Source: a virus (Duplodnaviria > Heunggongvirae > Uroviricota > Caudoviricetes). Taken from it: DNA of 32,991 bases. Both the position numbers and the translations under genes were made by a program. Numbering within the stretch: position 1 is the first letter of the stretch; every line of letters begins with the position of its first letter. The stretch lies in the IMG/VR virus record IMGVR_UViG_2737471869_000025. The stretch is one strand, 5' to 3'. Under the pieces are notes generated by a model. It searched no databases. It was given only the letters and a program-made list of their open reading frames with translations, and was not told the origin of the DNA. Shown here one piece after another: positions 4,181 through 32,991 of this stretch.

Positions 4181-6434
4181 AGCCTCCGGGCATTTTGTCC
4201 CTCCGTCAGCATTTGCCGCAGGCACCGGTAAGACGTTTACCGGTGCTTATGCATGGAACGCGCCACGCGAGGCCGTCGGGCGCGAAAGACCCCTTACACG
4301 TGACGAGATGCGTCAGGTGCAAGGTGTTTTATCCACGATTAACCGCCTGCCTTACTTTTTGCGCTCGCTGTTTACTTCACGCTATGACTACATCCGGCGC
4401 AATAAAAGCCCGGTGCACGGGTTTTATTTCCTCACATCCACTTTTCAGCGTCGTTTATGGCCGCGCATTGAGCGCGTGAATCAGCGCCATGAAATGAACA
4501 CCGACGCGTCGTTGCTGTTTCTGGCAGAGCGCGACCAGTATGCGCGCCTGCCGGGGATGAATGACAAGGAGCTGAAAAAGTTTGCCGCCCGTATCTCATC
4601 ACAGCTTTTCATGATGTATGAGGAACTCTGCGATGCCTGGGTGGATGCGCATGGCGAGAAAGAATCGCTGTTTACGGATGAGGCGCAGGCTCACCTCTAT
4701 GGTCATGTTGCTGGCGCTGCACGTGCTTTCAATATTTCCCCTCTCTACTGGAAAAAATACCGTAAAGGACAGATGACCACGAGGCAGGCATATTCTGCCA
4801 TTGCCCGCCTGTTTAACGATGAGTGGTGGACTCATCAGCTTAAAGGCCAGCGTATGCGCTGGCATGAGGCGTTACTGATTGCTGTCGGGGAGGTCAATAA
4901 AGACCGTTCTCCTTATGCCAGTAAACATGCCATTCGTGATGTGCGTGCGCGCCGCCAGGCAAATCTGGAGTTTCTTAAATCGTGTGACCTTGAGAACAGG
5001 GAAACCGGCGAGCGCATCGACCTTATCAGTAAGGTGATGGGCAGTATTTCTAATCCTGAAATTCGCCGGATGGAGCTGATGAACACCATTGCCGGTATTG
5101 AGCGTTACGCCGATGCAGAGGGTGATGTGGGGATGTTTATCACGCTGACCGCGCCGTCAAAGTATCACCCGACACGTCAGGTCGGAAAAGGCGAAAGTAA
5201 AACCGTGCAGCTTAATCACGGCTGGAACGATGAGGCATTTAATCCAAAGGATGCGCAGCGTTATCTCTGCCGTATCTGGAGCCTGATGCGCACGGCATTC
5301 AAGGATAATGATTTACAGGTCTACGGTTTGCGTGTCGTCGAGCCACACCACGACGGAACGCCGCACTGGCATATGATGCTTTTTTGTAATCCACGCCAGC
5401 GTAACCAGATTATCGAAATCATGCGTCGCTACGCGCTCAAAGAGGATGGCGACGAAAGAGGAGCCGCGCGAAACCGTTTTCAGGCAAAACACCTTAACCG
5501 GGGCGGTGCTGCGGGATATATCGCGAAATACATTTCAAAAAACATCGACGGCTATGCACTGGATGGTCAGCTCGATAACGATACCGGCAGACCGCTGAAA
5601 GACACTGCGGCGGCTGTTACCGCATGGGCGTCAACGTGGCGCATCCCGCAATTTAAAACGGTTGGACTGCCGACAATGGGGGCTTACCGTGAACTACGCA
5701 AATTGCCTCGCGGCGTCAGTATTGCTGATGAGTTTGACGAACGCGTCGAGGCTGCTCGCGCCGCCGCAGACAGTGGCGATTTTGCGCTGTATATCAGCAC
5801 GCAGGGTGGGGCAAATGTTCCGCGCGATTGTCAGACTGTCAGGGTTGCCCGTAGTCCGTCGGATGACGTTAACGAGTACGAGGAAGAAGTCGAGAGAGTG
5901 GTCGGCATTTACGCGCCGCATCTCGGCGCGCGTCATATTCATATCACCAGAACGACGGACTGGCGCATTGTGCCGAAAGTTCCGGTCGTTGAGCCTTTGA
6001 CTTTAAAAAGCGGCATCGCCGCGCCTCGGAGTCCTGTCAATAACTGTGGAAAGCTCACCGGTGGTGATACTTCGTTACCGGCTCCCACACCTTCTGAGCA
6101 CGCCGCAGCAGTGCTTAATCTGGTTGATGACGGTGTTATCGAATGGGATGACCCGGATGTCGTGAGGGCGCTCAGAGGTGCATTGAAACACGGACTGAGA
6201 ACACCAAATCGTCAGCAAAGAAACGGAAGCCCGTTAAAACCGCATGAAATAGCGCCATCAGCCAGACTGACCCGGTCGGAACGAATGCAAATCACCCGTA
6301 TCCGCGTTGACCTTGCTCAGAACGGTATCAGGCCGCAGCGATGGGAACTTGAGGCGCTGGCGCGTGGAGCGACATTGGTATATGGCGAAAAAAAATTCAC
6401 ATATCAGCTTGTTGATAAGCAGTTTGGTTTTTAA
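4170..6434 (+). CDS. A: Replication initiation protein A (rolling-circle nickase)
   Basis: Near-identical to P2 gpA over most of its length as recalled; true start is the ATG at 4170 (MAVKASG...), not the upstream TTG of the ORF track; C-terminal ~25 aa diverge from P2. Confidence 0.9.
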   Translation: MAVKASGHFVPPSAFAAGTGKTFTGAYAWNAPREAVGRERPLTRDEMRQVQGVLSTINRLPYFLRSLFTSRYDYIRRNKSPVHGFYFLTSTFQRRLWPRIERVNQRHEMNTDASLLFLAERDQYARLPGMNDKELKKFAARISSQLFMMYEELCDAWVDAHGEKESLFTDEAQAHLYGHVAGAARAFNISPLYWKKYRKGQMTTRQAYSAIARLFNDEWWTHQLKGQRMRWHEALLIAVGEVNKDRSPYASKHAIRDVRARRQANLEFLKSCDLENRETGERIDLISKVMGSISNPEIRRMELMNTIAGIERYADAEGDVGMFITLTAPSKYHPTRQVGKGESKTVQLNHGWNDEAFNPKDAQRYLCRIWSLMRTAFKDNDLQVYGLRVVEPHHDGTPHWHMMLFCNPRQRNQIIEIMRRYALKEDGDERGAARNRFQAKHLNRGGAAGYIAKYISKNIDGYALDGQLDNDTGRPLKDTAAAVTAWASTWRIPQFKTVGLPTMGAYRELRKLPRGVSIADEFDERVEAARAAADSGDFALYISTQGGANVPRDCQTVRVARSPSDDVNEYEEEVERVVGIYAPHLGARHIHITRTTDWRIVPKVPVVEPLTLKSGIAAPRSPVNNCGKLTGGDTSLPAPTPSEHAAAVLNLVDDGVIEWDDPDVVRALRGALKHGLRTPNRQQRNGSPLKPHEIAPSARLTRSERMQITRIRVDLAQNGIRPQRWELEALARGATLVYGEKKFTYQLVDKQFGF

Positions 6435-6935
6435 TCAAATAGTGTATTAAATGTACTAAAATGTATCTTTTTATATAAAAAACAAAGTGCTGAATCAATT
6501 CTCAGTTTTTGTATTTTTTAGATCGTAAACCGATTAGTGTTACCAAGAGTATTCAGTTAATAGGGCTTTAATTTTTTGCTTCCCTGTTTTGGTGGTTATG
6601 TGGTACTGTTTTTTTATACAGTTTTTGAGGTTGCTGAGAAATAGAAAATGATAGAGTTATATGCGAGCCTTAGTTTAATTCGTTGTAATTAGGATTGGGT
6701 ATATCATTCGTACTGTCAGTGGTCATATACCACTAAGCAAAGCAATAGAATCCTACGAATTATTGTTTAAATAGTAACATTGGCAATTATAACGGCAGTA
6801 TCTGTGTTTTGTCTGTCAGTGGTTACATCGAGAGTATGTGATTTGCATTACATAACTAGTTGATGTTCCTTAGTTGTAGATAGAAAGTATTCGATTTATT
6901 ATAAGAGTACAAAAATTTATGCTAAGGATACTAGA

Positions 6936-7127
6936 ATGGAGTGGATTACACATATAATCACTTTCTTTGTCGGACTAGGAGCGGGTTGGTCGATTCGTGT
7001 CGTGTTTTCATCTAGAAAGCAAATTGGTGATTCCAGCGTGAACTCAAACAATCATACAGTTACTCAAACTGGTAACAGTGTTACAAATGGAAGTATTGTT
7101 GGCGGTAATCAGGATAGGTCACATTAA
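6936..7127 (+). CDS. Small membrane protein of the cargo cassette (single TM helix, Gly/Asn-rich tail)
   Basis: 63 aa; hydrophobic ITHIITFFVGLGAGWSIRVVF then polar tail ending with a GNSVTNGSIVGGNQ motif; first gene of an AT-rich four-gene block. Confidence 0.5.
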   Translation: MEWITHIITFFVGLGAGWSIRVVFSSRKQIGDSSVNSNNHTVTQTGNSVTNGSIVGGNQDRSH

Positions 7128-7138
7128 GAGGTGTTGGT

Positions 7139-7702
7139 GTGTCTATCGAACAGTCAGGAAATACCGTAACAAATGGCAACATAATTTCTGGTGATCAGAC
7201 TAATCATATATTCAATTATCCTGTTAAAGGAACTAACAGGGAGATACAGAAACTTTATGAGTGTTTGAAGAGAGGTGATATAGGGGAAGCGGTTCCGGGG
7301 TTTTGTGCTGAACTAGAGCATTATATGTCCCTTCAGCCTGATATTGATGTTCGGGGGTTAGACGCTAAATTACTCGAGAGTAATAGAAAAGATTTGTTGT
7401 TTTTAGCTAAGCAGATGAAGGAAAAAGCGACAAAAGCTATAATGCGTCGCCAGACGTCAAAAACTGCACAAAGAATATTTGTAATAATTTTAGATCAAAT
7501 TCATTTTGATTTTATAACGAAAGTAACACCACTTATAGAAGCGGATAGCTCCAGAGTGATTGTTGATGAGAAAATCGCTTCAATAATTGATGAATTATAT
7601 TCGTCTTTGGGAGAAAACTTGCTAGAGCTAACAGCAAAAGATCTCTTGGGATTACTATTTTTTCTGGGTGGCAATTGCCATATAAGGTGGGATAAATGCT
7701 AA
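7139..7702 (+). CDS. Hypothetical protein of the cargo cassette (187 aa)
   Basis: GTG start 7 nt after an AAGAGG Shine-Dalgarno; N-terminus GNTVTNGNIISGDQ repeats the C-terminal motif of the upstream ORF; no recognisable catalytic motif. Confidence 0.6.
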   Translation: MSIEQSGNTVTNGNIISGDQTNHIFNYPVKGTNREIQKLYECLKRGDIGEAVPGFCAELEHYMSLQPDIDVRGLDAKLLESNRKDLLFLAKQMKEKATKAIMRRQTSKTAQRIFVIILDQIHFDFITKVTPLIEADSSRVIVDEKIASIIDELYSSLGENLLELTAKDLLGLLFFLGGNCHIRWDKC

Positions 7703-8196
7703 TTTACCATCCAGCATATGATGCATATCATTGTTTATTCAGAATGATTGCTCTTATAGACCATGTAAATGAAATTGAGGTAGATAAGGCCAGGATTTTG
7801 GACTTCTATCTGCTATTTCCTGCTTTGGTATCTGAAATTAGAATGCCTCATAATTATTCTTCAATGAAGAAAGAAGCGAAGAAGTATTCTAATATATATC
7901 GGGATCCTATTAATGTTACATCTACATTCAGAGATATGTATGAAATTCAAATGGCAGCAATAAGATGTCTTGCAGCTACTGGGTTGGTTGAGATGGATTG
8001 TCTTGAGAAAAACATTATAAAGAGAACAGATAAGTCTGTTCCAGATGGCTTATTACTTTCTATTAATAATTTTATTAATACGAATAAAACTATTAATACA
8101 TTTATCATAGACACACTATCTAAATTCCATTTGGTTGGAAAAGATGGTTTAAAAGATAGAACGAAGTTAATGGAGTTTAGATATGACTATTCTTAA
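7696..8196 (+). CDS. Hypothetical protein of the cargo cassette (166 aa, possible middle component)
   Basis: Start overlaps the upstream stop and its own stop overlaps the ATPase start (operon-like coupling); no recognisable motif. Confidence 0.6.
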   Translation: MLIYHPAYDAYHCLFRMIALIDHVNEIEVDKARILDFYLLFPALVSEIRMPHNYSSMKKEAKKYSNIYRDPINVTSTFRDMYEIQMAAIRCLAATGLVEMDCLEKNIIKRTDKSVPDGLLLSINNFINTNKTINTFIIDTLSKFHLVGKDGLKDRTKLMEFRYDYS

Positions 8197-10120
8197 TCCA
8201 TCTTTTTTTGTTAGTAAATTAAAAGTTTTCCAAGCTGGGCATGAAGCCTTTAGCTGTGTTTTCCATAAAGGGGTAAATGTAATAAGGGGGCGAAATAGCT
8301 CTGGCAAAACTACTGTTATGGATCTTTTAGCATTTTCACTTGGTGCTGAAAATATTAGCTTGAAACCAACAGCTCTTTTATGTTCATTTACCATGGTTGA
8401 AGTGCTTTTGAATAATAATCTTGCCTGTTTTAAGCGGGAGATAAGTTCAGAATCCATGCGACCGTTGAGTATTTTTTGGGGCTCGATGGATAAAGCTCTT
8501 AACTCATCACCGAGTCAGTGGCAAACTTATCCTTTTAAGCGTTCAGAAAAATCACTGAGTTTTTCTCAGGTAATTTTAAATGCTTTAGATATGCCTCTAG
8601 CTCAAGGAGAGGGTGCTTCAATTTTAACAATGCATCAAATCCTACGTGTATTATATGCAGATCAGCCATCTCTTCATAGTCCTATATTTAGGAACGATAA
8701 TTTTGATAGAGCTCTAACACGAGAGACTATTGGTGATTATTTATGTGGTATATTTGATGACAAACTTTATAGCTCTTTGATTAGGCTTAAACAAGTTGAT
8801 GCTGAACTTTCGACAAAAATTGTTGAGCTGAAAAGCATATTTAAAGTTCTTGGACGCTCTGGGCAATCGCAGCATGTAAGTTTTATTGACGATAAAATAA
8901 AAGAGCTAAGAGAGAAGAAAGAAAAGATCAATGGCGAGCTTATCTCTCTCAAAGAGAGTAATAACTCTTCTGTTAATGATAAAAATGCTGATAAAACTAA
9001 AACTAACAACCTTCGAAAAAAATTAAATAAAGCGAAAGAAGAAGAAGTAAAAAATATTGACAGTATCCATATGTTAGAAATGGAGATAGCTGACTCTGAA
9101 ATGTTCATTAATGAGTTAGAATCCAGATTGCGCTCTCTTAATGAATCAAGTATTGCCAGAGACTATTTTAGCAACGTTAAATTTCAATTTTGTCCCAGTT
9201 GTTTAAGTGAGTTGAATATTTCCTCTGAAAATGAGTGCTCATTATGTAAAAATCACGCGCCAGAGGGTAGTGATGCTCCTCAATTATTAAGGATGAAAAA
9301 TGAGATTTCTATCCAATTAAAAGAATCCAGAGATCTTCTTGAGCATAATTATGTAAAACTGAGAGAGCTTAAGAGCCAATCTCCTGCTTTAAAGCAAAAA
9401 GTGCGAGATTTAATTCGTGAATATGAAGAAGTCTCTAAGGTTTGGGAAAATGCCTATGAAATAGAGTTTGAAACTCTTACTAAGGCTCTGGGACGTGTTG
9501 AAGAAGAAATTAAACAGGCTTGTGAATTACAAAAACTTAGTGATGTAATATCTGATTTGCAAAAAGAACGTGATAGTCTGCAGTTAGAGAAGGAGAGATT
9601 GTCCTCTTTAATTGAATCTTTGGAGAGTAAAGAGGAATATAGGAAGAAGGATATTTCTAAAACTATAGAAAAAATTATGAAAAGACTTCTTAAAAAAGAT
9701 CTTCCATTGCAGACTGAATTTATTGATCCCAGAAAAGTTAATTTTAGCTTTGCCGATAATACTGTTTATGTAAATGGGGCTAAGTATTTTTCAGAAAGTT
9801 CAGCAGTTGTATTAAGACATCTCTTTCATTTAGCATTGTTAACTGCAAGCATTGAAAAAAAATACATGAGATTACCTCGTTTCCTAATGCTTGATGGAAT
9901 TGACGATGGTGGAATGGAGAAAGAGCGCAGTCACAATCTGCAGAAAATAATAGTACAAGAAACTCAATCGTATCAATATGATTTTCAAATAATTTATGCG
10001 ACATCGGAGATTAATCCAGAATATGAAAATACCGATTTGATTGTTGGTCGGTATTTTAATCCAGATGATAAATCATTAAAGATAAATTATACCGCTCTTG
10101 ATAAAGATTTATTGAACTAA
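8183..10120 (+). CDS. SMC/Rad50-like ABC ATPase with coiled coil and putative zinc hook (candidate defence ATPase)
   Basis: 645 aa; Walker A GRNSSGKTT (aa 36-44); Walker B/D-loop-like RFLMLDGIDDGG (aa 566-577); about 300 aa of charged heptad-like sequence between the lobes; CPSC-x11-CSLC at aa 337-355, the midpoint. Confidence 0.8.
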   Translation: MTILNPSFFVSKLKVFQAGHEAFSCVFHKGVNVIRGRNSSGKTTVMDLLAFSLGAENISLKPTALLCSFTMVEVLLNNNLACFKREISSESMRPLSIFWGSMDKALNSSPSQWQTYPFKRSEKSLSFSQVILNALDMPLAQGEGASILTMHQILRVLYADQPSLHSPIFRNDNFDRALTRETIGDYLCGIFDDKLYSSLIRLKQVDAELSTKIVELKSIFKVLGRSGQSQHVSFIDDKIKELREKKEKINGELISLKESNNSSVNDKNADKTKTNNLRKKLNKAKEEEVKNIDSIHMLEMEIADSEMFINELESRLRSLNESSIARDYFSNVKFQFCPSCLSELNISSENECSLCKNHAPEGSDAPQLLRMKNEISIQLKESRDLLEHNYVKLRELKSQSPALKQKVRDLIREYEEVSKVWENAYEIEFETLTKALGRVEEEIKQACELQKLSDVISDLQKERDSLQLEKERLSSLIESLESKEEYRKKDISKTIEKIMKRLLKKDLPLQTEFIDPRKVNFSFADNTVYVNGAKYFSESSAVVLRHLFHLALLTASIEKKYMRLPRFLMLDGIDDGGMEKERSHNLQKIIVQETQSYQYDFQIIYATSEINPEYENTDLIVGRYFNPDDKSLKINYTALDKDLLN

Positions 10121-10124
10121 CAAC

Positions 10125-10154
10125 CAAAACCATGCATAACCATGCATGGTTTTG
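10125..10154 (+). terminator. Hairpin immediately after the cargo operon (possible terminator)
   Basis: 12-bp perfect stem 10125..10136 / 10143..10154 with 6-nt loop, 5 nt after the ATPase stop; the T-run is partly inside the stem, so strength is uncertain. Confidence 0.45.
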
Positions 10155-10263
10155 CATTTATATCAGCTTGTTTTTGAATCGGGGCAAGTCCAGAGGTGGT
10201 AAGCTGTTTGGAGAAAACTGCAACTGCATTAAAACCGCCCCACGAAGCGGGCGGGCGAGGCGG

Positions 10264-10282
10264 GGAAAGCACTGCGCGCTGG
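10264..10282. other. cos: cos cohesive-end site (19 nt)
   Basis: ggcgaggcggggaaagcac matches the P2 19-nt cohesive end as recalled; located between the cargo and Q as in P2; flanked by GC-rich dyads. Confidence 0.65.
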
Positions 10283-10441
10283 CGGTGGTGCTGATTTTAT
10301 TTTTTCAGCGTCTGAGCGCGTCGTGATGGCGTTTAGATTGTTCGCCGGGGGCGTTGGTGTGTATGCGGGCTGTTTTGCGCGGTGGTGAGCGTGTGAGGGC
10401 GTGATGACGGGGTGTAAAAAGCCGCCCGCAGGCGGCGATGT

Positions 10442-11476
10442 TCAGCCGTTGTCAGTGTCCAGTGAGTAGTTTTTAAAGCGGATGACCTCCTGACCGAGCC
10501 AGCCGTTTATTTCCCGAATCCTGTCCTGTAGCGGGATAAGCTCATTGCGGACAAAGACCTTTGCCACTTTCTCAATATCGCCCAGCGACCCGACGTTCTC
10601 CGGCTTGCCGCCCATCAACTGAAAGGGGATGCGGTGCGCGTCCAGCAGGTCAGCGGCGCTGGCTTTTTTGATATTAAAAAAATCGTCCTTCGTTGCCACT
10701 TCACTGAGCGGGATAATTTTAATGCCGTCGGCTTTCCCCTGTGGGGCATAGAGAAACAGATTTTTAAAGTTATTGCGGCCTTTCGACTTAACCATGTTTT
10801 CGCGAAGCATTTCGATATCGTTGCGGTCCTGCACGGCATCGGTGACGTACATGATGTATCCGGCATGTGCGCCGTTTTCGTAATACTTGCGGCGGAACAG
10901 CGTGGCTGATTCATTCAGCCAGGCAGAGTTAAGGGCGCTGAGATATTCCGGCAGACCGTACAGCTCCTGATTAATATCCGGCTCCAGCAGGTGAAACACG
11001 GAGCCGGGCGCGAAAGGTGTCGGCTCATGGAAGGACGGCACCCACCAGTAAACATCCTCTTCCACGCCACGGCGGGTATATTTTGCCGGTGAGGTTTCCA
11101 GTCTGATGACCTTACCGGTGGTGCTGTAACGCTTTTCCAGAAACGCATTACCGAACACCAGAAAGTCCAGCACAAAGCGGCTGAAATTCTGCTGTGAAAG
11201 CCACGGATGCGGGATAAATGTCGAGGCCAGAATATTGCGTTTAACGTAAATCGGCGAGCTGTGATGCACGGCAGCACGCAGGCTTTTTGCCAGACCGGTA
11301 AAGCTGACCGGCGGCTCATACCATCTGCCGTTACTGATGCACTCGACGTAATCCAGAATGTCACGGCGGTCGAGTACCGGCACCGGCTCGCCAAAGGTGA
11401 ATGCCTCCATTTTCGGGGCGCTGGCGGTCATTTTTTTTGCCGCAGGTTGCGGTGTTTTCCCTTTTTTCTTGCTCAT
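10442..11476 (-). CDS. Q: Portal protein
   Basis: 344 aa, matches P2 gpQ as recalled; position next to cos and upstream of P. Confidence 0.95.
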   Translation of the reverse strand: MSKKKGKTPQPAAKKMTASAPKMEAFTFGEPVPVLDRRDILDYVECISNGRWYEPPVSFTGLAKSLRAAVHHSSPIYVKRNILASTFIPHPWLSQQNFSRFVLDFLVFGNAFLEKRYSTTGKVIRLETSPAKYTRRGVEEDVYWWVPSFHEPTPFAPGSVFHLLEPDINQELYGLPEYLSALNSAWLNESATLFRRKYYENGAHAGYIMYVTDAVQDRNDIEMLRENMVKSKGRNNFKNLFLYAPQGKADGIKIIPLSEVATKDDFFNIKKASAADLLDAHRIPFQLMGGKPENVGSLGDIEKVAKVFVRNELIPLQDRIREINGWLGQEVIRFKNYSLDTDNG

Positions 11477-15411: not shown

Positions 15412-16155
15412 ATGACGAGTCCCGCACAGCGCCACATGATGCGGGTCTCGGCAGCGATGACCGCGCAGCGGGAAGCCGCCCCGCTGCGACATGCAACTGT
15501 CTATGAGCAGATGCTGGTTAAGCTCGCCGCAGACCAGCGCACACTGAAAGCGATTTATTCAAAAGAGCTGAAGGCCGCGAAAAAGCGCGAACTGCTGCCG
15601 TTCTGGTTGCCGTGGGTGAACGGCGTGCTGGAGCAGGGCAAAGGTGCACAGGATGACATTCTGATGACGGTCATGCTGTGGCGTCTGGATACCGGCGATA
15701 TTGCCGGTGCGCTGGAGATTGCCCGTTATGCCCTGAAGTACGGTCTGACCATGCCGGGTAAACACCGCCGCACCCCGCCGTACATGTTCACCGAGGAGGT
15801 GGCGCTTGCGGCCATGCGTGCCCACGCTGCCGGTGAGTCTGTGGATACCCGCCTGCTGACGGACACCCTTGAACTGACCGCCACGGCTGACATGCCTGAT
15901 GAAGTGCGCGCAAAGCTGCACAAAATCACCGGTCTGTTTCTGCGTGACGGTGGTGATGCCGCCGGTGCGCTGGCTCACCTGCAACGTGCGACACAGCTCG
16001 ACTGTCAGGCAGGCGTCAAAAAAGAGATTGAACGACTGGAGCGGGAGCTGAAACCGAAGCCGGAGCCGCAGCCCAAAGCGGCCCCCCGCACTCCGCGTAA
16101 GACCCGGAGCGTGACACCGGCAAAACGTGGACGCCCGAAAAAGAAAGCCAGTTAA
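15412..16155 (+). CDS. M: Terminase small subunit
   Basis: 247 aa, matches P2 gpM as recalled. Confidence 0.93.
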   Translation: MTSPAQRHMMRVSAAMTAQREAAPLRHATVYEQMLVKLAADQRTLKAIYSKELKAAKKRELLPFWLPWVNGVLEQGKGAQDDILMTVMLWRLDTGDIAGALEIARYALKYGLTMPGKHRRTPPYMFTEEVALAAMRAHAAGESVDTRLLTDTLELTATADMPDEVRAKLHKITGLFLRDGGDAAGALAHLQRATQLDCQAGVKKEIERLERELKPKPEPQPKAAPRTPRKTRSVTPAKRGRPKKKAS

Positions 16156-16254
16156 CAACCGAATGCGCCCCGCGCCAGGGCGGCACGCCGGTCAGTGAGG
16201 GTGAATCACCTGACACTGCACCGGCGTCCACCGCCCGACTTTTCAGAGGTAGTC

Positions 16255-16764
16255 ATGATGACGCTGATTATTCCGCGAAAGGAGGCTCCCGTGTCCGGTG
16301 AGGGTACGGTGGTCATCCCGCAACCGGCAGGCGACGAGCCGGTGATTAAAAACACGTTCTTTTTTCCCGATATCGACCCGAAGCGCGTCCGGGAACGTAT
16401 GCGCCTTGAGCAGACCGTCGCCCCCGCCCGTCTGCGAGAGGCCATCAAGTCAGGCATGGCGGAGACGAATGCGGAGCTGTACGAGTACCGCGAACAGAAA
16501 ATTGCCGCCGGTTTTACGCGTCTGGCGGACGTCCCTGCGGACGATATCGACGGTGAAAGCATCAAGGTTTTTTACTACGAGCGCGCCGTGTGTGCGATGG
16601 CGACCGCGTCGCTTTATGAGCGTTACCGCGGCGTGGATGCCAGTGCGAAAGGCGACAAGAAGGCCGACAGCATTGACAGCACCATTGATGAGCTGTGGCG
16701 GGATATGCGCTGGGCGGTGGCGCGCATCCAGGACAAGCCGCGCTGCATCGTGAGTCAAATCTGA
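16255..16764 (+). CDS. L: Head completion/stabilisation protein
   Basis: Matches P2 gpL as recalled; start at ATG 16255 (MMTLIIPRK, 169 aa). Confidence 0.93.
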   Translation: MMTLIIPRKEAPVSGEGTVVIPQPAGDEPVIKNTFFFPDIDPKRVRERMRLEQTVAPARLREAIKSGMAETNAELYEYREQKIAAGFTRLADVPADDIDGESIKVFYYERAVCAMATASLYERYRGVDASAKGDKKADSIDSTIDELWRDMRWAVARIQDKPRCIVSQI

Positions 16765-16967
16765 TGAAGACCTTTGCGCTACAGGGCGACACGCTCGACG
16801 CCATTTGTGTCCGGTATTACGGGCGCACTGAGGGCGTGGTTGAGACCGTGCTCGCCGCAAATCAGGGACTGGCTGAACTGGGTGCGGTGCTGCCACACGG
16901 CACCGCCGTCGAACTGCCCGACGTTCAGACCGCGCCCGTGGCTGAAACTGTCAATCTGTGGGAGTAA
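16764..16967 (+). CDS. X: Tail protein X
   Basis: 67 aa from ATG 16764, which overlaps the L stop; matches P2 gpX as recalled. Confidence 0.9.
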   Translation: MKTFALQGDTLDAICVRYYGRTEGVVETVLAANQGLAELGAVLPHGTAVELPDVQTAPVAETVNLWE

Positions 16968-16970
16968 CGC

Positions 16971-17252
16971 ATGACAGCAGAAGAAAAAAGCGTCCTGTCG
17001 CTTTTCATGATTGGGGTGCTGATTGTTGTCGGCAAGGTGCTTGCCGGTGGTGAACCTATCACCCCGCGTCTGTTTATCGGGCGCATGTTGCTCGGTGGTT
17101 TTGTCTCAATGGTTGCCGGTGTTGTTCTGGTGCAGTTTCCTGACCTGTCACTGCCTGCGGTGTGCGGCATTGGCTCCATGCTGGGTATCGCCGGTTATCA
17201 GGCGATTGAGATTGCCATTCAGCGCCGCTTTAAGGGCAGGGGGAAACAGTAA
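16971..17252 (+). CDS. Y: Holin
   Basis: 93 aa with hydrophobic TM segments; matches P2 gpY as recalled. Confidence 0.9.
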   Translation: MTAEEKSVLSLFMIGVLIVVGKVLAGGEPITPRLFIGRMLLGGFVSMVAGVVLVQFPDLSLPAVCGIGSMLGIAGYQAIEIAIQRRFKGRGKQ

Positions 17253-17749
17253 TGCCGGTAATTAACACGCATCAGAATATCGCCGCCTTTCTCGACATGC
17301 TGGCGGTGTCCGAAGGGACGGCGAATCATCCGCTGACGAAAAACCGGGGCTATGACGTGATAGTCACCGGACTGGACGGGAAGCCGGAAATTTTCACCGA
17401 CTACAGTGACCACCCGTTCGCACATGGCCGACCGGCGAAGGTGTTTAACCGTCGCGGTGAAAAATCCACGGCCTCCGGTCGCTATCAGCAGCTTTACCTG
17501 TTCTGGCCGCATTACCGTAAACAGCTTGCCCTGCCGGATTTCAGTCCGTTGTCACAGGACAGACTCGCCATTCAGTTGATCCGCGAACGCGGTGCACTGG
17601 ATGACATCCGGGCGGGACGCATTGAGCGCGCCATTTCACGCTGTCGCAATATCTGGGCGTCCCTGCCGGGAGCCGGTTACGGTCAGCGTGAGCATTCACT
17701 GGAAAAACTGGTCACCGTCTGGCGTACCGCTGGCGGCGTACCGGCTTAA
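17252..17749 (+). CDS. K: Endolysin
   Basis: 165 aa, matches P2 gpK as recalled. Confidence 0.93.
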   Translation: MPVINTHQNIAAFLDMLAVSEGTANHPLTKNRGYDVIVTGLDGKPEIFTDYSDHPFAHGRPAKVFNRRGEKSTASGRYQQLYLFWPHYRKQLALPDFSPLSQDRLAIQLIRERGALDDIRAGRIERAISRCRNIWASLPGAGYGQREHSLEKLVTVWRTAGGVPA

Positions 17750-19177: not shown

Positions 19178-19622
19178 GTTTAAGCGTTTTGAAGACCGGC
19201 TGGCCGGACTGACTGAATCGCTGTCGCCGTCAGGGCGTCGGCGACTGAGTGCCGAACTGGCGAAGCGCCTGCGGCAGAGTCAGCAGCGCCGGGTGATGGC
19301 ACAGAAAGCCCCGGACGGCACACCCTACGTGCCACGCCAGCAGCAGAGCGCCAGAAAAAAGACCGGTCGTGTTAAGCGAAAAATGTTTGCGAAACTTATC
19401 ACCAGTCGTTTTTTGCATATCCGCGCCAGCCCTGAACAGGCATCAATGGAGTTTTACGGCGGGAAGTCACCGAAAATAGCCAGTGTGCATCAGTTCGGTC
19501 TGTCGGAAGAAACCCGGAAAGACGGTAAGAAAATTGATTATCCGGCGCGTCCTCTGCTCGGCTTTACCGGTGAGGATGTGCAGATGATTGAAGAGATTAT
19601 CCTGGCTCACCTCGACCGTTAG
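19170..19622 (+). CDS. S: Tail completion protein S
   Basis: Start at ATG 19170 (MNEFKRFEDRL, 150 aa); matches P2 gpS as recalled. Confidence 0.92.
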   Translation: MNEFKRFEDRLAGLTESLSPSGRRRLSAELAKRLRQSQQRRVMAQKAPDGTPYVPRQQQSARKKTGRVKRKMFAKLITSRFLHIRASPEQASMEFYGGKSPKIASVHQFGLSEETRKDGKKIDYPARPLLGFTGEDVQMIEEIILAHLDR

Positions 19623-19688
19623 TTGTGCCATTCCCGACACCTCATCGTTACATTGCCGCCGGTATGACCCGGCGGCATCCTTCCCGTT

Positions 19689-20324
19689 ATGAACACTCTC
19701 GCAAATATCCAGGAACTCGCGCGCGCACTGCGCAACATGATCCGCACCGGCCTTGTCGTCGAAACCAACCTTAAAGCCGGTCGCTGCCGTGTGCAGACCG
19801 GCGGCATGTGCACCGACTGGCTTCAGTGGCTGACCTGTCGTGCCGGGCGTTCGCGCACATGGTGGGCACCTTCCGTGGGGGAGCAGGTGCTGATTCTGGC
19901 CGTGGGCGGTGAACTTGACACGGCGTTTGTTCTGCCGGGGATTTATTCCGGCGATAACCCCGCGCCGTCTGCGTCGGCGGATGCCCTGCATATCCGTTTC
20001 CCTGACGGGGCGGTGATTGAGTATGAACCCGAAACCAGTGCACTCACGGTAAGCGGAATTAAAACGGCCAGCGTGACGGCTTCTGATTCTGTTACTGCCA
20101 CGGTGCCGGTGGTCATGGTGAAAGCATCAACCCGCGTCACCCTGGACACACCGGAGGTAGTCTGCACCAACAGGCTGATTACCGGCACGCTGGAAGTGCA
20201 GAAGGGCGGGACGATGCGCGGCAACATTGAACACACCGGCGGTGAACTCTCATCAAACGGTAAGGTACTGCATACCCATAAACACCCCGGCGACAGCGGC
20301 GGCACAACCGGGAGCCCTCTATGA
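19689..20324 (+). CDS. V: Baseplate spike protein
   Basis: 211 aa, matches P2 gpV as recalled. Confidence 0.93.
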   Translation: MNTLANIQELARALRNMIRTGLVVETNLKAGRCRVQTGGMCTDWLQWLTCRAGRSRTWWAPSVGEQVLILAVGGELDTAFVLPGIYSGDNPAPSASADALHIRFPDGAVIEYEPETSALTVSGIKTASVTASDSVTATVPVVMVKASTRVTLDTPEVVCTNRLITGTLEVQKGGTMRGNIEHTGGELSSNGKVLHTHKHPGDSGGTTGSPL

Positions 20325-21581: not shown

Positions 21582-22185
21582 TTCGCGACTGCTGCCGACC
21601 GGCTCATCACCGCTTGAAGTTGCCGCCGCAAAAGCCTGTGCGGAAATTGAAAAAACACCGGTCAGTATTCGTGAGCTGTGGAACCCGGACACCTGCCCGG
21701 CAAATCTGCTGCCGTGGCTGGCGTGGTCATTTTCGGTTGACCGCTGGGATGATAAGTGGCCGGAAGCGACAAAACGCGCTGTTATCCGCGATGCGTATTT
21801 CATTCACTGCCATAAGGGCACTATAGGCGCAATCCGGCGTGTGGTGGAGCCGCTCGGCTATCTGATTGAGGTGAGGGAGTGGTGGCAGCTCAACGAGGAG
21901 CCGGGGACATTCCGCATCGTTGTTGGCGTGCTTGAGCAAGGTATTACCGAGGAAATGTATCAGGAGCTGGAGCGCCTCGTTGCTGATGCAAAACCGGCAA
22001 GCCGCCATCTGACGGGACTGGCTATCAGTTTAAGTACAACCGGCAACATTTTTGCCGGTGCGGGATGCTATCACGGTGACGCCCTGACGGTTTATCCCTA
22101 CACCCCGGAGGCCATTATTGTCGGAGGGGATTATTTCCCGGCCTCGGCCATTCATTTAATTGATAACCTGAGAGTAAACGCATGA
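21574..22185 (+). CDS. I: Baseplate/tail protein I
   Basis: 203 aa; N-terminal two thirds match P2 gpI as recalled, C-terminal part differs and is longer. Confidence 0.88.
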   Translation: MSDSRLLPTGSSPLEVAAAKACAEIEKTPVSIRELWNPDTCPANLLPWLAWSFSVDRWDDKWPEATKRAVIRDAYFIHCHKGTIGAIRRVVEPLGYLIEVREWWQLNEEPGTFRIVVGVLEQGITEEMYQELERLVADAKPASRHLTGLAISLSTTGNIFAGAGCYHGDALTVYPYTPEAIIVGGDYFPASAIHLIDNLRVNA

Positions 22186-23588
22186 CAGTGAAATACTACG
22201 CCATTCTGACTAATCAGGGCGCAGCACGGCTGGCTAACGCGACGATGCTCGGCAGTAAGCTGAATCTGACGCAAATGGCCGTTGGTGATGCGAATGGTGT
22301 CTTGCCGACACCAGACCCGGCACAGACAAAACTGATTAACCAGAAACGCATCGCGCCGCTGAATCTTCTGAGTGTTGACCCGAACAACCAGAGCCAGATT
22401 ATTGCGGAGCAAATCATCCCTGAGAACGAGGGCGGATTCTGGATCCGTGAGATTGGGCTTTATGATGATGAAGGCGTACTCATTGCGGTGGCAAACTGCC
22501 CGGAAACGTACAAACCGCAGTTGCAGGAAGGAAGCGGTCGTACCCAGACTATCCGCATGATTCTGGTTGTCTCGAATACCGAAGCCATCACGCTGAAAAT
22601 CGACCCGTCGGTGGTACTGGCGACCCGTAAATACGTGGATGATGAAGTCCTGGAATTAAGGCTGTATGTGGATGACCAGATGAGAAACCACATTGCCGCA
22701 CAGGATCCTCATACCCAGTATGCACAGAAACATAATCCGACATTTACCGGAGAACCAAAAGCGCCGACGCCTGCCGCAGGAAATAACACCACGCGGATTG
22801 CGACTACTGCGTTTGTTCAGGCCGCTATTACCGCTCTGATTAACGGTGCGCCAGCCACGCTGGACACACTGAAAGAAATTGCCGCAGCCATTAACAATGA
22901 CCCGAAATTCAGCACCACCATTAACAATGCGCTGGCACTGAAAGCGCCGCTGTCGAGTCCCGCACTTACCGGAACGCCAACAGCACCTACTGCGGCACAG
23001 TCGGTCAACAATACACAGATTGCCACCACGGCTTTTGTGAAATCAGCAATTGCGGCAATGGTGGGTTCTGCCCCTGCGGCACTGGATACACTGAATGAAC
23101 TGGCGGCGGCGCTGGGGAATGACCCTAACTTTTCAACAACAGTGCTTAATGCACTGGCAGGCAAACAACCGCTGGACAATACGCTTACTAATTTGAGTGG
23201 AAAGGATGTTGCTGGTCTTCTCGCATACCTTGGTTTGGGAGAAGCGGCAAAAAGGGATGTTGGCACAGGTGCAAATCAGATCCCTGATATGAGTTCGTGG
23301 ACAAAGGGAATCTCAACGGATGCAATCTGGATCAGGTTTCCAGACGGGACAATTATCCAGATGGGGGCGATTGGAGCTTCAAACACAGATATTACCTTTC
23401 CCATACCGTTTCCATCACAGTGCATGATTTTTATAGCAATGCCACGTAGTTCAGCATCAACGGCTTTCATTGGCACTGTTCAGGAGGACTCATTACGTCG
23501 GTCCAGAACAGGGACACGAGTGCTGGGTTTTAGCGGCGTAACGCCAGTAACGACAGCTGCTTTCGGCTATTTAGCGATCGGAAGATAA
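22182..23588 (+). CDS. H: Tail fiber protein (H-like, mosaic)
   Basis: 468 aa; conserved tail-fiber N-terminal core (FWIREIGLYDDEGVLIAVAN) and two tandem ~54-aa repeats, with a divergent C-terminal receptor-binding part; shorter than the P2 H I recall. Confidence 0.85.
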   Translation: MTVKYYAILTNQGAARLANATMLGSKLNLTQMAVGDANGVLPTPDPAQTKLINQKRIAPLNLLSVDPNNQSQIIAEQIIPENEGGFWIREIGLYDDEGVLIAVANCPETYKPQLQEGSGRTQTIRMILVVSNTEAITLKIDPSVVLATRKYVDDEVLELRLYVDDQMRNHIAAQDPHTQYAQKHNPTFTGEPKAPTPAAGNNTTRIATTAFVQAAITALINGAPATLDTLKEIAAAINNDPKFSTTINNALALKAPLSSPALTGTPTAPTAAQSVNNTQIATTAFVKSAIAAMVGSAPAALDTLNELAAALGNDPNFSTTVLNALAGKQPLDNTLTNLSGKDVAGLLAYLGLGEAAKRDVGTGANQIPDMSSWTKGISTDAIWIRFPDGTIIQMGAIGASNTDITFPIPFPSQCMIFIAMPRSSASTAFIGTVQEDSLRRSRTGTRVLGFSGVTPVTTAAFGYLAIGR

Positions 23589-23591
23589 ATA

Positions 23592-24035
23592 ATGACTCAT
23601 TATTACTACAGTGCGTCTGAAAACGCGTTTTTTCCCGCAGTGCTGGAAGAACAGTACAAAAAGGCTGGCACATTCCCGGATGATGCCAGGGAGGTTGATG
23701 CTGATGTGGCCGTTACTTTTATAGGGAATCCGCCTGATGGCAAAATTCGTATTGCCGGGAGTGACGGGATGCCGAGGTGGGGAGATATTCCACCACCAAC
23801 CCATGCAGAAATTATTGCTGAGGCTGAACGAGAAAAACAACGCCGTATTGATGTCGCAAACGAATTCATGAATAACAAGCAGTGGCCCGGTAAAGCCGCT
23901 ATTGGTCGTCTGAAAGGTGACGAACTGGCGCAATATAATTTGTGGCTGGATTACCTGGACGCACTGGAACTGGTCGATACTTCCAGTGCGCCAGATAATG
24001 AATGGCCTACGCCTCCGGCAGTTCAGGCCAGATGA
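23592..24035 (+). CDS. G: Tail fiber assembly protein (Tfa)
   Basis: 147 aa with the conserved Tfa C-terminal region (LWLDYLDALELVDTSSAPDNEWPTPP); directly downstream of H. Confidence 0.88.
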   Translation: MTHYYYSASENAFFPAVLEEQYKKAGTFPDDAREVDADVAVTFIGNPPDGKIRIAGSDGMPRWGDIPPPTHAEIIAEAEREKQRRIDVANEFMNNKQWPGKAAIGRLKGDELAQYNLWLDYLDALELVDTSSAPDNEWPTPPAVQAR

Positions 24036-24420
24036 CATCCGGCGCGGTGCTGGTATCTGTTGCCGTCACCGCGTCAGTGTAATCCAGCACGGCGTTAAGT
24101 CGGGTTGTTTCTGCCTGCGTCAACTTCCGTCCGGCCTGTAATTTCAGCTGAATCAGACTAATGGAAGCCATTGCTGCATCAATCAGTGACTGGCGCTGTG
24201 CTTCTGCTGCATCTACTGCTGCGCCGTGCTGTGCCTCGGTATCTGTCACCCATTTCTCACCATTCCATTCATCGTATGGCGTTAACGGGGCGATAGTGGT
24301 TGTATTTTCAGGATAATCACCCGGAGCTGTGATTTCTTTCGATTCTCCTGTTTCGGTGCTATAGACGATTTCACCGCGATGATCTGGCACATATTCCCAT
24401 GAATTTAAATCTACAGAGCG
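24007..24420 (-). pseudogene. Inverted, 5'-truncated second tail fiber assembly gene (Tfa' remnant)
   Basis: Minus-strand ORF 24007..24531 has Tfa-like sequence only in its C-terminal ~135 aa (WEYVPDHRGEIVY...LDYTDAVTATDTSTAPDVIWPELP); the first ~37 codons are antisense of the invertase remnant. Confidence 0.6.
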
Positions 24421-24454
24421 ACAGATTGCATAACCAGCTTTATGTGTACCTGGT

Positions 24455-24703
24455 GCATCCGAGCGGACACGCGCCGGACTGGAAGCGGCCAGAGCCAAAG
24501 GCCGTATTGGTGGCAGACGTCCGAAACTCACCGCGAGTGAGTGGGAGCAGGTCGGACGGTTGCTGGCTGCGGGGGAATCTCGTCAACGTGTGGCGTTGAT
24601 TTTTGATATTGGCCTGTCCACGCTCTATAAAAAATTCCCCTCATCAGCGACAAAGAATAAATTGTGTCATCCCTTAGCCAACCGGGACAAATAGCCTGAC
24701 ATC
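24455..24703 (+). pseudogene. 3' fragment of a Gin/Pin/Hin-family serine DNA invertase (C-terminal HTH domain only)
   Basis: In-frame translation ERTRAGLEAARAKGRIGGRRPKLTASEWEQVGRLLAAGESRQRVALIFDIGLSTLYKKF resembles the invertase C-terminus; no catalytic N-terminal domain and no start codon; not in the ORF track. Confidence 0.65.
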
Positions 24704-24753
24704 TCCGGCACAACTGAAAATACCACTCACCCATTAACCACGGAGTTAAACGG

Positions 24754-25944
24754 ATGAGTGACTATCATCACGGCGTGCAGGTGCTGGAGATTAACGACGG
24801 CACCCGCGTCATTTCCACTGTATCCACGGCCATTGTCGGCATGGTCTGCACGGCCAGCGATGCGGATGCGGAAACCTTCCCCATCAATAAACCGGTGCTG
24901 ATTACCAATGTGCAGAGCGCAATTGCAAAGGCTGGTAAAAAAGGCACGCTGGCGGCATCGTTGCAGGCCATCGCCGACCAGTCAAAACCGGTCACCGTTG
25001 TCGTGCGTGTGGAAGACGGCACCGGCGACGACGAGGAAACGAAACTCGCGCAGACCGTTTCCAATATCATCGGCACCACCGACGAAAACGGTCAGTACAC
25101 CGGACTGAAAGCCCTGCTGGCGGCGGAGTCGGTAACCGGTGTTAAACCGCGTATTCTCGGCGTGCCGGGACTGGACACCAAAGAGGTGGCTGTTGCACTG
25201 GCATCAGTCTGTCAGAAGCTGCGCGCTTTCGGGTATATCAGCGCATGGGGCTGTAAAACCATTTCCGAGGTGAAAGCCTACCGTCAGAATTTCAGCCAGC
25301 GTGAGCTGATGGTCATCTGGCCGGATTTCCTCGCATGGGATACGGTTGCCAGTACCACCGCCACCGCGTATGCCACCGCTCGTGCGCTGGGTCTGCGCGC
25401 TAAAATCGACCAGGAGCAGGGCTGGCATAAAACGCTGTCCAATGTCGGGGTGAACGGTGTTACCGGCATCAGCGCCTCTGTATTCTGGGATTTGCAGGAG
25501 TCCGGCACCGATGCTGACCTGCTGAACGAGGCAGGTGTCACTACGCTGATTCGCCGCGACGGTTTCCGCTTCTGGGGGAACCGTACCTGCTCTGATGACC
25601 CGCTGTTCCTCTTTGAAAACTACACCCGCACCGCGCAGGTGCTGGCCGACACGATGGCTGAGGCGCACATGTGGGCGGTGGACAAGCCCATCACCGCAAC
25701 GCTGATTCGCGACATCGTTGACGGCATCAATGCCAAATTCCGTGAGCTGAAAACAAACGGCTATATCGTGGATGCGACCTGCTGGTTCAGCGAAGAATCC
25801 AACGATGCGGAAACCCTCAAGGCCGGAAAACTGTATATCGACTATGACTATACCCCGGTGCCTCCTCTCGAAAACCTGACCCTGCGCCAGCGTATTACTG
25901 ATAAATACCTGGCAAATCTGGTCACCTCGGTTAACAGCAATTAA
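24754..25944 (+). CDS. FI: Tail sheath protein
   Basis: 396 aa, matches P2 gpFI as recalled. Confidence 0.95.
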   Translation: MSDYHHGVQVLEINDGTRVISTVSTAIVGMVCTASDADAETFPINKPVLITNVQSAIAKAGKKGTLAASLQAIADQSKPVTVVVRVEDGTGDDEETKLAQTVSNIIGTTDENGQYTGLKALLAAESVTGVKPRILGVPGLDTKEVAVALASVCQKLRAFGYISAWGCKTISEVKAYRQNFSQRELMVIWPDFLAWDTVASTTATAYATARALGLRAKIDQEQGWHKTLSNVGVNGVTGISASVFWDLQESGTDADLLNEAGVTTLIRRDGFRFWGNRTCSDDPLFLFENYTRTAQVLADTMAEAHMWAVDKPITATLIRDIVDGINAKFRELKTNGYIVDATCWFSEESNDAETLKAGKLYIDYDYTPVPPLENLTLRQRITDKYLANLVTSVNSN

Positions 25945-31367: not shown

Positions 31368-31394
31368 AAGCCCCTCAGTCGAGGGGCTTTTTTT
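31368..31394 (+). terminator. Rho-independent terminator downstream of ogr
   Basis: GC-rich stem aagcccctc / gaggggctt with 4-nt loop, followed by a T-run. Confidence 0.8.
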
Positions 31395-31457
31395 GTCGAT
31401 GTGGTCAATGTGTGGACGTGGCCAGAAATAAATCCTTTTATTTCAATTTGTTGTACG

Positions 31458-31485
31458 TAAAAAATAAGCCCGTGTAAGGGAGATT
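31458..31485. repeat. attR: attR core, 28-bp direct repeat; also the 3' terminator end of cyaR
   Basis: Identical to 491..518; continues directly into the cyaR body. Confidence 0.85.
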
Positions 31486-31545
31486 ACACAGGCTAAGGAG
31501 GTGGTTCCTGGTACAGCTAGCATTTTATGGGTTATGTTTTTCAGC
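31459..31545 (-). ncRNA. cyaR: CyaR (RyeE) Hfq-binding small RNA
   Basis: Reverse complement gctgaaaaacataacccataaaatgctagctgtaccaggaaccacctccttagcctgtgtaatctcccttacacgggcttatttttt matches CyaR as recalled, including terminator hairpin and U-tail; lies between yegQ and the prophage as in E. coli. Confidence 0.85.
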
Positions 31546-31600
31546 GAAACGGATGATAACCTTAATAAATGCAGCTGTATGTGATCGGTTTCTAAGAATT
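31546..31600 (-). promoter_or_regulatory. cyaR promoter with class II CRP site
   Basis: On the minus strand, -10 TATCAT (31553..31558) and a CRP-like site TGTGA-N6-TCTAA (31580..31595) centred about 42 bp upstream of the sRNA 5' end. Confidence 0.6.
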
Positions 31601-31629
31601 TTCCATACGGGAAAAATAATCGAAATTAA

Positions 31630-32991
31630 TCACTTACCGTGTGGGTTACGCGTGGTTTCCCCGGAGAAATTACGCATCAGCAGAGCGTAATTGAGCTCAA
31701 GATCCTGCGGGACCGGGAGCCACACAGTATAACCATCGCCTGGTGCGACCGGCATCGCTTCACCTTTGGCGTTTTCCATGTGCTCAAGGGTAAAGTTAAT
31801 GTTGCCTTGCGGCGTCATCAGCTCAAGGCTGTCGCCAACGGAGAATTTATTTTTCACCGCTACCGCCGCGAGGTCCCCCTTGCGCTCACCGGTAAACTCA
31901 CCAACAAACTGCTGGCGGTCAGAAACTGAATAACCGTATTCGTAGTTCTGATAATCGTCGTGAGTATGACGACGCAGGAAACCTTCGGTATAGCCACGAT
32001 GCGCCAGACCTTCCAGAGTTTCCAGCAGGCTGGTATCGAACGGTTTGCCCGCAGCGGCGTCATCGATAGCTTTACGGTAAACCTGTGCGGTGCGTGCGCA
32101 ATAGTAGAAAGATTTAGTACGGCCTTCGATTTTCAGCGAATGCACGCCCATTTTGGTCAGGCGTTCTACATGGGCGATGGCGCGCAGATCTTTCGAGTTC
32201 ATGATGTAAGTGCCGTGCTCATCTTCAAACGCGGTCATATACTCGCCCGGACGCTGGGTTTCTTCGATCATAAACACTTTGTCGGTTGGCGCGCCGATAC
32301 CCAGCGTCGGCTCAACATTTTGCACCGGAATCGGCTCGTACTTGTGTACGATGTTGCCAACGTCATCTTCTTTCCCTTCCTGGACGTTGTACTCCCAGCG
32401 GCAGGCGTTGGTGCAGGTACCCTGGTTCGGATCGCGCTTGTTGATATAGCCAGAGAGCAGGCAGCGACCGGAGTAGGCCATGCACAGTGCGCCGTGAACG
32501 AAGATCTCGATCTCCATATCCGGCACCTGATTGCGGATCTCTTCAATCTCTTCCAGCGACAGCTCGCGAGAGAGGATCACGCGGGTCAGGCCCATTTGCT
32601 GCCAGAATTTCACCGTCGCCCAGTTTACGGCGTTAGCCTGCACCGAGAGGTGGATCGGCATTTCAGGGAAGTGCTCACGCACCAGCATAATCAGCCCTGG
32701 ATCGGACATAATCAGCGCATCCGGCCCCATTTCCACCACCGGTTTCAGGTCACGGATAAAGGTTTTCAGCTTGGCGTTGTGCGGTGCAATGTTGACCACG
32801 ACATAAAACTTTTTCCCCAGCGCGTGGGCTTCATTGATGCCGAGCTGAAGATTTTCGTGGTTGAATTCGTTGTTGCGCACACGCAGGGAGTAACGCGGCT
32901 GGCCCGCATAAACAGCATCTGCGCCATAAGCGAAAGCGTAACGCATATTTTTCAGCGTTCCCGCCGGGGAAAGGAGTTCCGGTTTAAACAT
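31630..32991 (-). CDS. yegQ: Peptidase U32-family protein YegQ (TrhP)
   Basis: 453 aa, full length; matches E. coli YegQ as recalled; start codon is the last three bases of the window. Confidence 0.9.
   Translation of the reverse strand: MFKPELLSPAGTLKNMRYAFAYGADAVYAGQPRYSLRVRNNEFNHENLQLGINEAHALGKKFYVVVNIAPHNAKLKTFIRDLKPVVEMGPDALIMSDPGLIMLVREHFPEMPIHLSVQANAVNWATVKFWQQMGLTRVILSRELSLEEIEEIRNQVPDMEIEIFVHGALCMAYSGRCLLSGYINKRDPNQGTCTNACRWEYNVQEGKEDDVGNIVHKYEPIPVQNVEPTLGIGAPTDKVFMIEETQRPGEYMTAFEDEHGTYIMNSKDLRAIAHVERLTKMGVHSLKIEGRTKSFYYCARTAQVYRKAIDDAAAGKPFDTSLLETLEGLAHRGYTEGFLRRHTHDDYQNYEYGYSVSDRQQFVGEFTGERKGDLAAVAVKNKFSVGDSLELMTPQGNINFTLEHMENAKGEAMPVAPGDGYTVWLPVPQDLELNYALLMRNFSGETTRNPHGK

Follow-up and report, generated by a model that had tools for sequence, protein, structure and literature searches.

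Relic of a Din-family tail-fiber switch in a P2-like prophage of Escherichia coli, probably left by a single deletion

The DNA between the tail-fiber chaperone gene G and the sheath gene FI of a P2-like prophage is best explained as the relic of a Din-family host-range switch that was inactivated by one deletion of about 1.07 kb. We place the probability of this explanation as a whole, from ancestral switch through single deletion to relic locus, at roughly 0.9. The window analyzed here is the entire 32,991-nucleotide stretch of IMG/VR record IMGVR_UViG_2737471869_000025. In phage Mu (gin), phage P1 (cin) and the e14 element (pin), an invertase together with an enhancer and Fis inverts a segment of DNA, thereby swapping the C-terminal receptor-binding part of the fiber and its chaperone. 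The ancestor of the present locus would have carried an invertible host-range cassette of this Din family (Gin/Cin/Pin/Hin-type) between the fiber gene and the sheath gene, laid out as the constant part of H, a crossover site, the variable tip Hv with G, then in opposite orientation a second chaperone gene G' and tip H'v, a second crossover site and the invertase gene. In such a switch, inversion of the segment by the invertase would fuse the other tip to the constant part of H and bring its chaperone downstream, with a change in host range. A single illegitimate deletion in a P2-type ancestor with an active switch would then have joined codon 51 of G' to invertase codon 120/121. The deletion would have cost the locus the start of G', all of the alternative tip, the right-hand crossover site and, from the invertase gene, both the promoter region and the catalytic domain. 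The features that can still be recognized are listed in Table 1.

Table 1. Coordinates of the features of the relic switch locus and of its right-hand border in the window (L001, locus of phage pro483).
Feature	Position	Strand	Description
Tail fiber gene H	22182..23588	+	468 aa; constant part, crossover site, then variable tip
26-bp Din-type crossover site	23218..23243	.	TTCTCGCATACCTTGGTTTGGGAGAA; encodes LLAYLGLGE within H; sole site left
Variable fiber tip Hv (gp53-like)	23244..23588	+	Expressed orientation
G, tail-fiber assembly chaperone, intact	23592..24035	+	147 aa; Caudo_TAP
G' remnant	24007..24459	-	3' 150 codons and stop of a 200-codon second Tfa gene
Deletion junction	24459..24460	.	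Window 24459 = L001 3733; window 24460 = L001 4803
Invertase remnant	24460..24694	+	Codons 121-197 of a 197-codon Gin-like invertase (24461-24691) and stop (24692-24694)
Counterpart of the P2 pF activator-binding site	24657..24685	+	P2 annotation 17555-17583; right cassette edge
FI, tail sheath gene	24754..25944	+	First F operon gene, right bound of locus; 98% to P2 FI, full length (tblastn)

The expressed fiber and the missing parts of the switch

The predicted product of H matched two Pfam families, Phage_tail_fib (1e-62, residues 1-150) and Gp53-like_C (5e-11, residues 385-468). For comparison we used Escherichia phage pro483 (NC_028943), which provides an intact reference at the same P2 position; positions in its locus are marked L001. 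The constant part of H (window 22001-22934) is 98.6% identical to pro483, and H as a whole has the same length as H of an intact relative, the P2-like prophage Tig228. The variable tip Hv is 98.5% identical to a gp53-like tip that lies in the silent orientation beside the invertase in E. coli 4114 (NZ_CP071328.1, 2600071-2602825). The chaperone G matched Caudo_TAP (PF02413) at 2.6e-30 over residues 10-142, and is equal in length to G of both E. coli 4114 and Tig228.

H contains an extra 213 bp (71 codons; window 22935-23147) that are missing from pro483 H. This insertion corresponds to one more repeat unit of approximately 71 aa (…TTAFV…APA.LDTL.E.AAA..NDP.FSTT…). The presence of one additional unit relative to pro483 indicates that the length of the fiber shaft varies by whole repeats.

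Crossover sites were identified by scanning with a Din-type 26-mer consensus; the validity of the scan rests on the inverted pairs found in intact relatives. In pro483 the scan located 26-bp sites at L001 2460-2485 and 4363-4388, an inverted pair around the invertible segment, and a repeat search returned an inverted repeat pair bracketing the segment at L001 2457-2486 and 4362-4391. The Tig228 locus has two sites by the scan (3819-3844 and 5693-5718). The E. coli 4114 locus has one by the scan (5648-5673), for which the repeat search supplied an inverted partner at 3826-3845. The scan found no crossover site in the stretch from H to FI of P2 itself. The original prediction had pointed to the interior of H and to the vicinity of 24430 as places for gix-like sites. 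One such site does lie inside H, at 23218-23243, and agrees in every base with the left site of pro483 (L001 2460-2485); we take it to resemble the gix/cix/pix consensus. Near 24430 there is neither a site nor a half-site, and the whole window yielded no second crossover site at up to 8 mismatches or as half-sites.

Other parts of the switch are also missing. By tblastn, the alternative tips of pro483, E. coli 4114 and Tig228 found no match anywhere in the window, nor was there any other invertase sequence or catalytic domain. When the locus is compared with a working Din-family switch, the HTH domain of the invertase is present, and the catalytic domain, the paired inverted sites and the paired tip/chaperone sets are absent. 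The deletion took away the first 359 bp of the invertase gene. In the Gin, Hin and Cin systems, the Fis-dependent recombinational enhancer acts in cis from within the 5' part of the invertase gene, and an enhancer at this usual place would have been lost with the deleted 5' part. With one site, no catalytic domain and no alternative tip, inversion should be impossible. Comparison with intact relatives supports the proposal that the locus is the relic of an invertible segment and that the fiber is now fixed. The fiber would thus be locked in the Hv (gp53-like)/G state, presumably the only fiber made.

The deletion junction and the two gene remnants

The gene order in pro483 is G, a minus-strand 200-aa Tfa (G') with a 176-aa tail collar fiber tip, a crossover site, a 197-aa DNA invertase and the sheath gene. 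Pfam assigned Resolvase (residues 3-135) and HTH_7 domains to the invertase, Caudo_TAP to the Tfa and Collar to the tip. By blastn, window 23726-24459 corresponds to L001 3001-3733 at 89% identity, and window 24460-25000 corresponds to L001 4803-5343 at 95%. At this shared genomic position the window and pro483 run collinear up to one gap and again beyond it, with exactly 1069 bp (L001 3734-4802) absent from the window. In pro483 the missing interval contains the first 50 codons of G', the 176-aa Collar-domain tip, the right crossover site (L001 4363-4388), a spacer, and the first 120 codons of the invertase, which make up nearly all of the Resolvase domain. The 1069-bp gap relative to pro483, along with the other intact relatives, confirms each of the losses that had been proposed for this locus, namely those of an alternative tip, a crossover site and the invertase catalytic domain. 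The description of the switch as decayed holds for these losses and fails for their manner, as they represent one clean deletion rather than a gradual process, and the remnant frames are open and near-identical to intact alleles. With relatives standing in for the true parent, the size and content of the lost piece would be as they appear in those relatives; the best proxies for the left side (the e14-like cassettes of E. coli S56 and A29) and for the right side (pro483) belong to different elements.

We also examined the junction for traces of how the deletion arose. There is no microhomology at the junction when pro483, E. coli 4114 or Tig228 is taken as the left parent. With the closest left alleles, those of S56 and A29, the microhomology is 1 nt, a C at 24460 that is shared with the invertase side. 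Repeat- or microhomology-mediated deletion was dismissed on the basis that at most 1 nt is shared at the junction. An 8-nt sequence, GCGCCGGA, shared 12 nt away in Tig228, was considered as a deletion repeat and judged to be a chance occurrence. A deletion could in principle have been made by the invertase itself, acting on a crossover site and a pseudo-site in direct orientation, and serine invertases can occasionally use secondary sites. Such an event is extremely unlikely here, as neither breakpoint lies at or resembles a 26-bp crossover site, the right breakpoint falls inside the invertase gene, and the real left site in H is untouched. We conclude that the deletion was, as far as the sequences on its two sides indicate, illegitimate and essentially blunt, being neither site-specific nor repeat-mediated.

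The left side of the junction carries the remnant of G', which lacks the first 50 codons and the native start but retains residues 51-200 based on protein alignment. Alignments of this region by blastn with pro483, E. coli 4114 and Tig228 all stop at 24459. The original prediction of a second, 5'-truncated Tfa gene on the minus strand was correct as to its presence, the minus-strand ORF 24007-24531 matching Caudo_TAP (PF02413) at E=6e-32 over profile positions 1-131 of 131, but homology extends to 24459 rather than to about 24420. The 29-bp overlap of G and G' (24007-24035) was likewise found as described, and the same overlap exists in pro483. The remnant is longer than G, contains no internal stops, and is identical to an intact allele at 149 of 150 positions. 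The 24 codons that extend the frame from 24459 to a GTG at 24531 are antisense to the invertase remnant, and direct reading of the sequence revealed no Shine-Dalgarno-like sequence ahead of this GTG. The resulting 174-aa chimeric ORF (G' remnant plus antisense invertase) had no entry on record in an exact look-up, because gene callers took a shorter start.

The right side of the junction carries the remnant of the invertase. The plus-strand frame from 24455 reads ASERTRAGLEAARAKGRIGGRRPKLTASEWEQVGRLLAAGESRQRVALIFDIGLSTLYKKFP... and ends at the stop at 24692-24694; the remnant has no start codon. Over 24455-24691 this frame contains a complete resolvase HTH_7 domain (E=1e-13). This was the only domain identified by Pfam, with no Resolvase catalytic domain (PF00239, bearing the N-terminal nucleophile serine) in the remnant. 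The earlier reading of this gene as the C-terminal HTH part of an invertase on the plus strand is therefore borne out by the HTH_7 match, with two corrections: homology begins at 24460, and the frame ends at the stop given above and not at 24703. The kinship to Gin-type invertases is real, the 77 residues of the remnant aligning to residues 121-182 of the solved Gin invertase 3uj3 (E=1e-22). The remnant also aligned with the Hin DNA-binding domain 1hcr (E=4e-10). Residues 121-197 of the pro483 invertase match it at 94.8% identity (73/77; tblastn), again with no internal stops. A promoter/terminator scan of 23500-24800 found no promoter-like sites near either remnant and only weak terminator-like hairpins.

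A potential concern is whether the two remnants have been kept for a function, either as a short Tfa translated from the chimeric ORF of 174 codons, or as a peptide consisting of the HTH alone, which would bind crossover sites and block invertases acting in trans. Both frames are open, the G' remnant covers the whole Caudo_TAP profile and exceeds G in length, and the HTH_7 domain is complete. We nevertheless consider a retained function very improbable. The native start codons are gone, no Shine-Dalgarno-like sequence precedes the GTG and no promoter-like site lies near either remnant, the tip that is cognate to G' is absent, and the open frames are accounted for by the recency of the deletion. 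Both remnants are thus likely to be silent, non-functional pseudogene fragments, their frames remaining open because the deletion is recent.

Mosaic structure and rarity of the junction

From 23230, a position inside the crossover site, to 24459, the window is 98.5% identical to the cassette of E. coli 4114. In that strain the Hv-G-G' module is found in the silent orientation beside the invertase, within a prophage that has a different baseplate module (ymfQ, gp46, gp47). All 12 remaining differences from the E. coli 4114 cassette are located at window 24403-24454, in the 57 bp left of the junction. Window 24300-24460 shows 100% identity to the e14-like cassettes found in E. coli S56 and A29. 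The last 57 bp before the junction thus switch to another G' allele, which indicates a mosaic joint inside G'. The start of homology to the E. coli 4114 cassette inside the crossover site indicates that fiber cassettes are common to different phage families. Based on this mosaic pattern, the invertible segment behaves as an exchangeable module that is bounded by the crossover site.

Although it is now an orphan, the site in H might still be acted on by Pin/Gin-type invertases that come from co-resident prophages. The 98.5% identity of Hv-G-G' to an unrelated prophage, with homology starting inside the site, is in keeping with such activity, which we regard as improbable; the coincidence of the module boundary with the site would be explained equally well by ordinary homologous recombination or by the cassette structure itself. 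If the site is still used, the locked fiber gene could now and then acquire a different tip-plus-chaperone cassette from one of these prophages, or could drive chromosomal rearrangement.

The mosaicism also bears on where the deletion took place. The truncated module could have been imported ready-deleted from another element, in which case this phage lineage would never have had a working switch. The region is indeed strongly mosaic: an e14/Mu-like prophage of an unrelated type has a cassette with 98.5% identity to Hv-G-G', recombination joints occur at 23230 and around 24403, and G contains a 7-SNP tract. The right side of the junction makes such an import quite unlikely, as the invertase remnant, and the way in which it is fused to the pF region, belong specifically to the P2/pro483 arrangement, with 95% identity and collinearity through FI. 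The deletion spans a G' of e14-like type and an invertase of P2 context, and therefore happened in a P2-type genome that had the full cassette.

The exact junction (CCNGGNGCATCCGAGCGGACNCGNGCCGG) found no match in GTDB species representatives or in IMG/VR. Junction-spanning and wider queries found no record covering the junction among 5,426 complete E. coli genomes and 50,697 phage records. By way of exact look-ups of H and G, the junction was found in two NCBI assemblies. GCA_000819375.1 carries it on contig JWZR01000040.1, with 100% identity to the window over 12.4 kb, and GCA_047261955.1 carries it on a 5.0-Mb contig, with 99.95% identity over 13.4 kb. The window and GCA_047261955.1 differ at 7 positions in these 13.4 kb, all of them in G between 23810 and 23998 (189 bp), and at each of the 7 GCA_047261955.1 has the common allele seen in E. 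coli 4114. This 7-SNP tract resembles the product of a brief recombination or gene-conversion event within the chaperone gene. As the junction is present in two assemblies, one of which differs from the window by the tract in G, it represents a real but rare allele that has persisted through at least one later recombination. Because the two assemblies are almost identical, they may both stem from a single recent lineage, in which case they would not be independent evidence that the allele has spread.

These data also address whether the locus could be an artifact, with an invertible region mis-assembled or collapsed in the record and an intact switch present in the real genome. Assemblers can be misled by invertible segments, which occur as mixed populations, and none of the four collections named above contains the junction. 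An artifact of this type is very unlikely, however, given that the junction is found in two separate NCBI assemblies, one of them on a 5.0-Mb contig, and that the breakpoints fall at no crossover site or repeat, where inversion-related mis-joins would be expected. The original prediction had allowed that correction of the assembly might restore an intact invertase and an alternative fiber; the recurrence of the same junction speaks against any assembly error.

The P2-type setting and comparison with known switches

Judging from its sequence, the window is an integrated P2-like (Peduovirus) prophage of E. coli that adjoins yegQ and is otherwise intact. The P2 gene order, a full-length set of essential genes and the att core repeats are all present, and the right flank (31500-32991) is yegQ, with 100% identity to E. 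coli chromosomes. Full-length matches to P2 genes at 82-100% identity were obtained by tblastn for Q through I, FI through ogr, int, C, cox, B and A, and approximately 72% of the first 25 kb matched P2 and its relatives at about 97% identity. Apart from the switch the phage looks viable, with all essential P2 genes at full length. By the same tblastn analysis, P2 H matched over its N-terminal part only (43%) and P2 G had no match in the window, nor was there a counterpart of orf30, fun(Z), orf91, tin or old, all of which P2 can dispense with.

Several additional features of the prophage were recorded. It is bounded by 35-nt direct repeats (484-518 and 31451-31485) that hold the 27-nt P2 att core (AAAAAATAAGCCCGTGTAAGGGAGATT), and a second, imperfect repeat pair is found just outside the att repeats (440-479 and 31391-31430). 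The slot occupied in P2 by orf30, between S and V (window 19622-19689), is empty, with about 66 bp separating the two genes, and orf91 is missing after gene A. The cargo slot that holds tin and old in P2 contains at window 7139-10120 a three-gene ABC-3C/Lamassu-like defense-type system. Its genes encode a 187-aa protein with Pfam CTD9, a 166-aa MC5 middle component, and a 645-aa AAA/SMC-type ATPase that matches PADLOC LmuB at 1e-46. The cargo DNA itself is unmatched in phage records, window 6400-10450 matching only over about 230 bp at its right edge, by the portal gene.

In P2 (NC_001895), the interval between G and FI contains a terminator after G followed by fun(Z) on the minus strand (15675-17261). 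Unlike the window, it contains no invertase, no second Tfa and no crossover site. The absence of Z/fun from the window had been predicted and was verified, as P2 fun(Z) gave no tblastn match in the window at E<1e-5 and P2 15275-17571 has no DNA homology there. The two are alike in their flanking genes and in the pF promoter region from P2 17572 onward. Homology to P2 is lost within gene I, at window 22004, and is regained at 24674, equivalent to P2 17572, within the pF activator-binding region. The last 7 codons and the stop of the invertase (window 24657-24694) lie inside the counterpart of the pF activator-binding site, fused as in pro483. The TTGTG...CCAAC dyad of this site is kept and a single base (24677) differs from pro483, so the promoter of the F operon should be unaffected.

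Phage pro483 has in common with the window the P2 backbone, the position of the locus, the left crossover site, the 29-bp overlap of G and G', and the fusion of the 3' end of the invertase gene to the pF region, with 89-98% nucleotide identity over the parts that the window retains. It differs in being intact, in having an expressed tip that is not gp53-like C, and in lacking the extra 213-bp repeat in H. We found nothing relevant to the switch in the literature on pro483. The architecture proposed for the ancestral state is like that of the Mu G segment with gin, the P1 C segment with cin, and the e14 P segment with pinE, all with two convergent tip-plus-chaperone sets, inverted 26-bp sites and a serine invertase. 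These switches are complete and active, whereas the window has one site, one tip and no catalytic domain. Within P2-like prophages, invertase-driven switching of fiber C-termini has been seen by sequencing in EPEC E2348/69, where one locus has three repeats and four variants (Goldberg et al. 2014, PMC4272514). The EPEC loci invert, but the locus in the window cannot. Of invertible segments, a further paper (PMC9942202) cites only that of P1.

Inactive copies of the cassette occur elsewhere. The recombinase of the Tig228 P2-like prophage is frameshifted (5774-6341 of that locus), and the e14-like element of E. coli S56 has a frameshifted recombinase and a partial stfP (2135-2443 and 4388-4944 of that locus). 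In these two elements the same cassette family was inactivated by frameshift mutation, in contrast to the deletion fusing G' to the invertase in the window. The locus described here is an instance of ordinary decay of a known type of switch at a known P2-like position, for which active inversion and other decayed copies are already known. The particular junction is new to the large collections searched.

The significance of the relic is small beyond annotation, and a specialist would not be surprised by it. For annotation, the two short ORFs after G should be treated as pseudogene remnants of a tail-fiber assembly gene and a DNA invertase, and not as genes. For host range, a single, fixed specificity should be predicted for this prophage, and for phage engineering the locus offers a naturally locked H/G pair in a P2 backbone. 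The locus also illustrates that fiber modules, bounded by the crossover site, are common to P2-like and e14/Mu-like elements. In terms of phage evolution, it would provide a clean example of the loss of a host-range switch through one illegitimate deletion rather than through slow decay.
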